Positions 63,042 to 64,000 of a DNA stretch of 64,000 nucleotides are shown one piece after another. Both the position numbers and the translations under genes were made by a program. Numbering within the stretch: the stretch's first letter is position 1; each line of letters opens with the position of its first letter. The DNA is from an uncultured Acidobacteriota bacterium (GTDB taxonomy: Bacteria; Acidobacteriota; Thermoanaerobaculia; Gp7-AA8): the NCBI GenBank assembly GCA_963822445.1, contig CAWGHO010000001.1, positions 32,001 to 96,000 on the forward strand. Direction: 5' to 3'. The notes below the pieces were generated by a model. It did not search any database. It saw only the letters and a program-made list of their open reading frames with translations, and had not been told where the DNA came from.

Positions 63042-63064
63042 AGAGCAGACAGCCGCCTAAATAC

Positions 63065-63472
63065 TAGTTCTATGAGAGCGATCGTCAAGGGCGGTTCCCT
63101 TCTTTGCTGATCGTTTTTTGTTTCCCCTGACGATCAGCTCCGACCGACCCGAAGAGGACGATCGCGAGCGTTTGCGGGCGGGCGGTACAGTCGGCCGCTG
63201 ACTCATTTCGTGCTGCTCAGAGGATCGTTTAGAAGCAAGTGCAAGCGTTGGGCGATCGCATGGAACGTCGACCATAGTTCTATCTGAGACTCGCGCACGC
63301 TGTGGCGCGGCCATGACGCTTGTTCGGGTCATCCGAGGGGCCTAGAGTTAGGCGAGTGCCTCAGCGGGACTGAGAGCCACCAGGCGGACTAGTATCTCCG
63401 AGACTCACCCTCGATCCGTTGCCTCTCGGATCAGCGAGCAGCCGAGTGACCCCACTCGCGCCGATCCGACGG
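63065..63472 (-). ncRNA. Candidate bridge/seek RNA region
   Basis: Non-coding, downstream of the transposase; carries 9-nt direct and 8-nt inverted matches to the inferred element junction. Confidence 0.55.
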
Positions 63473-64000
63473 CTATGTCGCTTGCATCGCTACTTTCGTT
63501 GGATCCCAGAGCTCTCCTTTCTTCCAGAGGTGTAGCATGATCGCGGCGATTTTTCTGGCCAGGGTGACCTTCGCGAGTTCCGGCCGGACACCATTCGCAA
63601 CGCAACGCTGGTAAGCGTCCTGAAGCGGTCCCGCTTTGAGTGTCGCCGCGTTGGCCGCTCCCTTGAACACGCTCTGAGAAGGCGGTTGTGGTTCCGATTC
63701 AGACCGCGCGTGGCGACCACGTGCCGGCGTCGGCGCAGCACACCACCAGAGAACTCGTGTTCACCGCTTGAGCGCGTTACCACGGCCAGACCGCAGTACG
63801 GCCACAGCTGCCGTTTCGTGCGGAACCGATGAGGGGTGACGATGATGGCCAGCAGGCAAGCCACACGAACGGGACCAAAGAATGGGATCGACTGCAGAAT
63901 GGTCCAACCATAACGCCGCGGTGCTTCAGCGACCATTGCCGCCTTCGCCCGCCGTCTGAGCTGTTTCAGTGTGTCGAGCTCGGTCAACAACTGCTCAGCG
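63473..64000 (-). CDS. IS110-family transposase/recombinase, C-terminal part (one frameshift)
   Basis: SIPFFGP; RFRTKRQLWPYCGL; SSG; ARKIA. Confidence 0.9.

Follow-up and report, generated by a model that had tools for sequence, protein, structure and literature searches.

Near one end of a 64-kb stretch of DNA from an uncultured Acidobacteriota bacterium, the minus strand runs from the end of an open reading frame (stop at w63475-63473) through about 400 nt without a convincing gene to CCCTTGACGATCGCTCTCATAGAAC and then TAGTATTTAGG. Does this non-coding stretch encode the bridge RNA (seekRNA) of an insertion sequence and, if so, which of its words are guides and which sites do they read? The whole 64-kb stretch, here called the window, comprises positions 32,001-96,000 of the forward strand of contig CAWGHO010000001.1 in assembly GCA_963822445.1 (Thermoanaerobaculia; Gp7-AA8); w coordinates are positions in it, and the numbering is continued beyond 64000 using the contig of the same genome. 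An earlier note on this DNA had singled out four minus-strand words as guides or possible guides of an IS110-family element, ATACTAGT at 63395-63388, ATAGAACTA at 63283-63275, GCTTCTA at 63236-63230 and AACTCTA at 63349-63343; all four are found at these places, and the junction on which it relied, CTTGACGATCGCTCTCATAGAAC followed by TAGTAT, reads at 63089-63061. We consider it very probable that the region is the 3' non-coding (right-hand) end of an IS1111-type insertion sequence of the IS110 family, and that this end encodes a bridge RNA or seekRNA.

The element, its ends and its surroundings

The features of the element are as follows.

w64614-63067, minus strand: whole insertion sequence, about 1.55 kb, 614 bp of it beyond the window end
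w63067-64000, minus strand: visible portion of the insertion sequence, delimited by termini conserved family-wide and by copy boundaries
w63473-64000, minus strand: 3' part of the IS110-family transposase gene, which starts with an ATG at w64539 (beyond the window) and whose C-terminal frame has its stop at w63475-63473
w63067-63472, minus strand: 3' non-coding region, the right end of the element, 406 nt, aligning with 49 relatives
w63072-63088, minus strand: right terminus; the -35-like TTGACG lies at w63088-63083, and GCTCTCAT, the right arm of the sub-terminal inverted repeat, at w63079-63072
w63061-63066, minus strand: TAGTAT, the right half of the target, in flanking DNA

The transposase carries both domains of the IS110 family, an N-terminal RuvC-like DEDD domain (PF01548, 30.3 bits against a Pfam cut-off of 29) and a C-terminal PF02371 domain (44 bits, cut-off 21.3). 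Among 17 proteins compared, D12, E58, D93 and D96 are invariant and S258 is nearly so. The best NCBIfam match is 'IS110 family RNA-guided transposase' (NF033542), at scores below the equivalog cut-off of 140 bits both for the N-terminal part in the window (111.8) and for an intact relative, L007 (122.4). Identity to plasmid IS110-family genes is at most 27%, and a PDB sequence search with an intact relative gave no match to any solved structure. The frame of the gene breaks near w63674-63680, and its two halves lie 5 nt apart in the window, whereas relatives typically have 6 nt there and a single frame. An extra base after w63674 is also present in all four soil-metagenome contigs found (four runs, one contig each), which are about 88-95% alike. 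Since the relatives and all four contigs carry one more base, the window copy lacks an intact recombinase frame and is frameshifted, either by mutation or through an assembly error. Judging from its sequence, this copy is probably inactive in cis, barring an assembly error at the frameshift.

The element is single-copy in its own genome (blastn), and thus no second copy is available there to define its ends. Elsewhere in the same genome, tblastn showed only three copies of another, distant recombinase gene of the IS110 family (24% identity), at C1:330381-331013, C3:254568-255200 and C3:745670-746302. A scan with one genome per species gave 188 stretches encoding relatives, of which the best 80, at 52-68% identity, were kept; these best 80 of 188 come mostly from metagenome-assembled genomes (MAGs) of Thermoanaerobaculia, Acidobacteriota and Gemmatimonadota. 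The 406-nt non-coding region is common to about 50 relatives from Acidobacteriota and Gemmatimonadota MAGs, and an alignment, A1, was made of the window's non-coding end and 49 non-identical relatives.

Both termini stand out in these comparisons. On the left, the family-wide sequence is a flank ending in CT and then AACGCAT.TTGA.AGC; on the right it is TTGAC...CATAGAAC and then flank, and conservation stops at either boundary. The right-end pattern TTGAC..(T/A)AGAA(C/T), a search pattern that itself includes TTGAC, was matched in 58 of 67 downstream regions of at least 300 nt, the other nine being unmatched. Where a genome holds several copies, as in two cases, identity between the copies begins with AACACAACTTGAAAGC and stops at ..CATAGAAC, with unrelated DNA outside. 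Contigs from three of the soil-metagenome runs (X2, X3 and X4) lose their likeness to the window at w63065-63067 (L081 1065-1067) on one side and at L081 2622-2623 on the other. The latter point is 8-9 nt beyond AAC, so these copies occupy left flanks resembling that of the window.

In the window the right junction reads ..CTCTCATAGAAC followed by TAGTAT, and the element stops at w63067. The left junction, at w64623-64599, reads ...GGTCGGCCT followed by AAC GCATGATGAGAGC, with AAC at w64614-64612; that is, the left end begins (AAC)GCATGATGAG after a flank ending in GGCCT. The earlier note had predicted a left end starting TAGAAGC and a left flank ending near ACTCTA, and neither is what stands beyond position 64000. 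An 8-bp sub-terminal inverted repeat, ATGAGAGC, has its left arm at left-end positions 9-16; the repeat is 7 bp in most relatives, against the 11-13 bp usual in IS1111. If the AC core (see below) is counted with the left end, the terminal extensions are ACGCATG (7) on the left and AGA (3) on the right. The upstream non-coding end is just 72 nt after AAC, as against 406 nt downstream of the transposase gene, and thus the longer non-coding region lies downstream of the gene, a trait of the IS1111 group.

Promoter-like words also occur at the ends. Joining the two ends (w63096-63067 and w64611-64585) into a circle would give, as read by eye, TTGACG, 17 nt and CATGAT, resembling the junction promoter of ISEc11. 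In the integrated state, the same TTGACG with a 16-nt spacer and the flanking TAGTAT (w63088-63061, minus strand) is the sole sigma-70-like site in w62900-63700, with 9 of 12 matches, and it points outward, towards a Rieske-domain ORF at w62676-61849. The insertion may thus have created an outward hybrid promoter.

A search of 40 relatives' genomes, including the unpublished G002, found no unoccupied target. To the right of the element, w62300-62714 is the sole DNA in common with the relatives' genomes, and to the left there are weak partial matches to two genomes. The own genome holds no other copy of the 13-nt target at up to one mismatch, and nine places with two mismatches. In two Longimicrobiales MAGs (L074-L080, OZ252253.1; L063-L070, CBDDCX01), most related copies lie inside a repeated sequence, ..GTCTCTGCGATTCTGCTGCGCGGCTAATG.., which suggests, from sequence context, that the clade targets a dispersed genomic repeat, like many IS1111-type elements. 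The window element itself sits at a synteny break, the DNA common to relatives reaching to about w62714. Beyond the element (w64615-70000) the GC content is 0.52-0.57 as against 0.63-0.69, and a gene for an 891-aa HD-CE + HATPase_c_3 protein, 65 bp from the left end, starts this lower-GC stretch, which is possibly part of an acquired island.

Fold of the non-coding end and its four proposed guide segments

RNAalifold, run on A1, gave a closing helix and two stem-loop-stem modules, and the guide segments sit in the internal loops of these modules.

w63233-63424, minus strand: predicted bridge/seek RNA core, 192 nt, closed by P1 (w63424-63421 / w63236-63233), from the RNAalifold consensus
w63333-63414, minus strand: target-binding module, 82 nt, with P2, P3, P4 and the internal loop between P3 and P4
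w63414-63408 / 63339-63333, minus strand: P2
w63404-63401 / 63343-63341, minus strand: P3
w63385-63379 / 63365-63358, minus strand: P4
w63388-63395, minus strand: right target guide (RTG) ATACTAGT, complementary to top-strand AC+TAGTAT, i.e. core and right flank
w63347-63353, minus strand: left target guide (LTG) GCCTAAC, identical to top-strand GCCTA plus core AC and pairing with the bottom strand
w63269-63331, minus strand: putative donor-binding module, with P5, P6 and an internal loop between them
w63331-63327 / 63273-63269, minus strand: P5
w63314-63307 / 63294-63287, minus strand: P6
w63316-63324, minus strand: tentative right donor guide (RDG) AACAAGCGT, complementary to core AC plus left-end GC.TG.T, one middle position being unpaired
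w63277-63283, minus strand: candidate left donor guide (LDG), ATAGAAC, with the same letters as the final 7 nt of the element
w63106-63138, minus strand: conserved hairpin GCTGATCGT..ACGATCAGC (helix 7)

The consensus was edited before pairs were counted. Two pairs (columns 149-189 and 150-188) were taken out, since both lie within the two target guides, and a pairing of w63141-63131 with the right terminus was swapped for a local 3' hairpin that counts equally well (94.7%), both being possible. The edited structure has 43 pairs in seven helices with 97.5% of cells paired, as against 31-41% when the partners are slid by 1-3 columns. Changes on both sides of a pair, i.e. compensatory changes, were found at 23 of the 43 pairs, and none of 500 shuffles reached any of the five measures used. 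In helices 2-4 pairing reaches 98-98.8%, and 4, 2 and 4 of their pairs, respectively, have changed on both sides. Pairing is 99.6% in helix 5 and 98.3% in helix 6, with three such pairs in each; in helix 7 it is 94.7%, with four. This last hairpin is located between the RNA core and the right terminus, and its 5' strand can alternatively pair with the terminus. A single-sequence fold of a 203-nt core of this GC-rich RNA is no better than those of shuffles (z = -0.31) and is thus uninformative, so that the structural case rests on covariation. An Rfam scan of w62000-64000 at E values up to 10 retrieved no family, the two matches to unrelated families being at chance level.

The two target guides lie on opposite strands of the first loop. 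On its 5' strand, the RTG is a segment ending in GT(T) that is the reverse complement of the core and right flank. At least five contiguous Watson-Crick pairs with the element's own right flank are formed in 26 of 48 elements and fewer than five in the other 22, while 1000 permutations of the flanks among elements gave a mean of 1.0 and a maximum of 5. In the window the RTG forms six flank pairs and two core pairs; the proposal that ATACTAGT is a target guide, for the right side, is thus borne out by the homologous positions in the relatives. On the 3' strand, the LTG shows at least seven contiguous identities with the element's own left junction in 32 of 41 elements (permuted mean 11.2, maximum 18). 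Even the rare junctions GGATGAC, GGGCTAC, GCTTGAC, GCGAAAC, GGCCGAC and GCGCAAC are each matched by the guide of their own RNA. RTG and LTG both covary with the relatives' own flanks, and the central claim of the earlier note, that the non-coding end of an IS110-family element carries guides, is supported.

The junctions also define the crossover. Left-junction position 1 and alignment column 192 agree as A-A in 36 elements, G-G in three and T-T in one, with a single C-A, whereas the base preceding AC at the right junction is always the element's A. As the base before AC follows the LTG on the left and is always A on the right, the crossover core is AC. The earlier note had both of its main guides overlapping CTA as the likely core; they do overlap the crossover core, but that core is AC. 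In the window the two target matches overlap at AC, with the RTG 5' of the LTG, and the same order is found in the donor loop. Column 151 (w63387), the base after the RTG core pair, is T in 24 of 41 elements, where it could pair with the donor's A, and C in the window. It is still T in L014, L037 and L046, whose target has G there, as expected for a donor-directed handshake base.

The other two words fared differently. GCTTCTA, put forward as a further guide, contains the 3' strand of the closing helix P1, pairing with w63424-63421, and AACTCTA takes in the final three bases of the LTG, a two-base linker and the beginning of the 3' strand of P3. The earlier reading is correct in outline and half correct in detail.

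In the second loop, the LDG lies on the 3' strand, and all 58 of the 58 non-coding ends compared have ATAGAAC at the corresponding internal position. Both the LDG and the element end are invariant, so that what is seen here is conservation, not covariation. The word originally proposed as donor guide, ATAGAACTA, stands in so far as its ATAGAAC is probably a guide for the right end of the element (the left donor half), but its extra TA is unmatched in relatives. Most of these have C following AAC, and L031, with a flank that begins with G, has T. The RDG, ..AANAAGCGT, is located on the 5' strand of this loop and is complementary to AC+GC.TNTT at the left end. For left-end positions 2-5 and 7-10, Watson-Crick pairing is seen in 28, 37, 40, 30, 38, 16, 39 and 36 of 41 elements, and position 6 is paired in 1 of 41. 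Column 221 is complementary to left-end position 8 in 16 of 41, a count reached by none of 5000 permutations. A G.G mismatch at donor position 5 is present in 11 of 41, and a change at position 4 (G-to-A/C-to-T) is confined to one clade. The RDG is the weakest of the guides, and donor recognition is tentatively assigned on the basis of conservation and of this weak RDG signal. CATGCG at w63262-63257 was also considered as a right donor guide and dropped, because it lies in a variable hairpin outside the donor loop.

A model of the recombination and its rivals

By analogy with the published work on ISEc11, ISPa11, ISKpn4 and IS621, we infer that this region would be transcribed, bind the recombinase and direct recombination. 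The bridge RNA (seekRNA) encoded by the right end of the element would then be about 190 nt long and contain two internal loops. Of these, the first would read the target GCCTA-AC-TAGTAT, the RTG ATACTAGT on its 5' strand pairing with the top strand to the right of the core and the LTG GCCTAAC on its 3' strand with the bottom strand to the left. The second would likewise read the joined ends of the excised circle, ..CATAGA-AC-GCATGATG.., by way of the RDG AACAAGCGT and the LDG ATAGAAC. The DEDD/Ser recombinase, bound to the bridge RNA, would exchange strands at the common AC dinucleotide. Exchange at AC would leave the element flanked by GCCTA-AC on one side and AC-TAGTAT on the other, just as it is found in the window.

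It could be argued that the target loop alone is an RNA guide, as in a narrowly defined seekRNA, with the recombinase recognising the ends through the sub-terminal inverted repeats and with ATAGAAC and AACAAGCGT being structural. The LDG and the right end never vary and so offer no covariation, and the RDG pairing is imperfect, with mismatches in 11 of 41 elements at position 5 and in 25 of 41 at position 8. Moreover, the available portion of PMC11187229 reports target matches only, describes a 70-100 nt RNA carrying these matches as sufficient and allows that end recognition may differ between the two families. We nevertheless think this account unlikely, as the second loop matches the first in architecture and in strand rule, the 7 nt of ATAGAAC reproduce the element end exactly in all 58 cases, and the covariation of column 221 with left-end position 8 exceeds that in every one of 5000 permutations; donor-binding nucleotides have also been predicted in IS1111 bridge RNAs, according to the available portion of PMC11208160.

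Much less probable still is that the conserved non-coding end acts at the DNA level, for example as a folded single strand or by providing sites for the recombinase, with no role as a transcript. Among public RNA runs none was found to contain the stretch, and a search ahead of the RNA core turned up no promoter-like site. [quoted passage not shown] Co-transcription with the transposase mRNA from the junction promoter, as proposed in that same portion, would explain the missing dedicated promoter. As for the notion that the matches between non-coding end and junction are a product of chance or a by-product of local duplication, it hardly deserves any credence and is refuted by the RTG and LTG comparison. 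The words are indeed short, 7-9 nt, and the TA following ATAGAAC is unsupported by relatives, but they are as rare as the earlier note had supposed. Against an expectation of 0.02 each in the window, ACTAGTAT has two matches in the 64 kb, both within the region discussed here (one at the junction and one, inverted, in the non-coding stretch), and ATAGAACTA also has two; two matches were reached in none of 100 shuffles for the former and in one of 100 for the latter. The homologous positions in dozens of relatives match those relatives' own, differing flanks. The reading we prefer is that of a bridge RNA with a target loop and a donor loop.

Place among known bridge RNAs and meaning for the family

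Elements of the IS1111 type with seekRNAs, namely ISEc11, ISPa11, ISKpn4 and ISPst6, have been described by Siddiquee et al. 2024 (PMC11187229). In the portion of that account available, sub-terminal inverted repeats are usually 11-13 bp with a left extension of 7 bp and a right one of 3 bp, and the seekRNA has an abundant form of 70-100 nt and a long form of 145-170 nt. The window element resembles those described there in its DEDD transposase with a PF02371 C-terminal domain and its long non-coding region downstream, and in part in its sub-terminal inverted repeats, whose terminal extensions are 7 bp and 3 bp if the AC core is counted with the left end. As in those seekRNAs, the target matches overlap at the crossover, with the top-strand match 5' of the bottom-strand match, and a right-end -35 would meet a left-end -10 upon circle formation. 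The 82-nt target module fits the size of the abundant form, while the core, at 192 nt, compares with 145-170 nt for the long form. The differences from the same account are an 8-bp inverted repeat in place of the usual 11-13 and a donor loop in which both guides are legible. The hosts, Acidobacteriota and Gemmatimonadota MAGs, also differ from those of the studied IS1111-type elements, and the protein is set apart from catalogued IS110-family proteins by its low identity to plasmid genes and by a score below the NCBIfam cut-off.

The other point of reference is the bridge RNA of IS621, of the IS110 group (Durrant et al. 2024, PMC11208160; Hiraizumi et al. 2024, PMC11208158). As far as the available portions of these two papers go, the two RNAs have in common a pair of internal loops that serve the target and the donor, respectively; left guides directed to the bottom strand and right guides to the top strand, all including the core dinucleotide; a short right donor guide broken by unpaired bases; and, following the RTG, a base with the potential to pair with the donor in the manner of the handshake guide of IS621. 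Unlike in IS621, the RNA here lies 3' of the gene and not 5', the order of the guides in each loop is reversed, and the core is AC and not CT.

With the strand rules of IS621 and the traits of IS1111-type seekRNAs both present, the mechanism is one already known and the window element is a further member from a distant branch. It is, in other words, an ordinary example of the mechanism described in 2024, from a little-studied branch in soil bacteria, and the alignments and predicted bridge RNAs of the 2024 papers and the ISfinder lists may already contain relatives from this clade. A bolder interpretation would be that the element represents a branch of bridge recombinases that is deep, as yet uncatalogued and common among the Acidobacteriota and Gemmatimonadota of soils, and that its RNA mixes the placement and guide order of the IS1111 type with IS621-like twin loops, four legible guides, an AC core, a split RDG and a donor-directed handshake base. 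We hold this to be possible but rather doubtful; if true, it would offer a compact, fully programmable IS1111-type system and would make donor recognition by RNA general in that group.

The window copy itself is of little consequence, since its recombinase gene carries a frameshift and no further site in the genome matches the guides at up to one mismatch. Two of the four bridge-RNA guides could be picked out by reading the raw sequence alone. For the family, the locus provides a worked anatomy, with ends, core, four guides and fold, for a branch far from the studied elements, and the variation among its roughly 50 relatives documents how the target loop is re-aimed. Intact relatives, e.g. L007, could be tried as new programmable recombinases.
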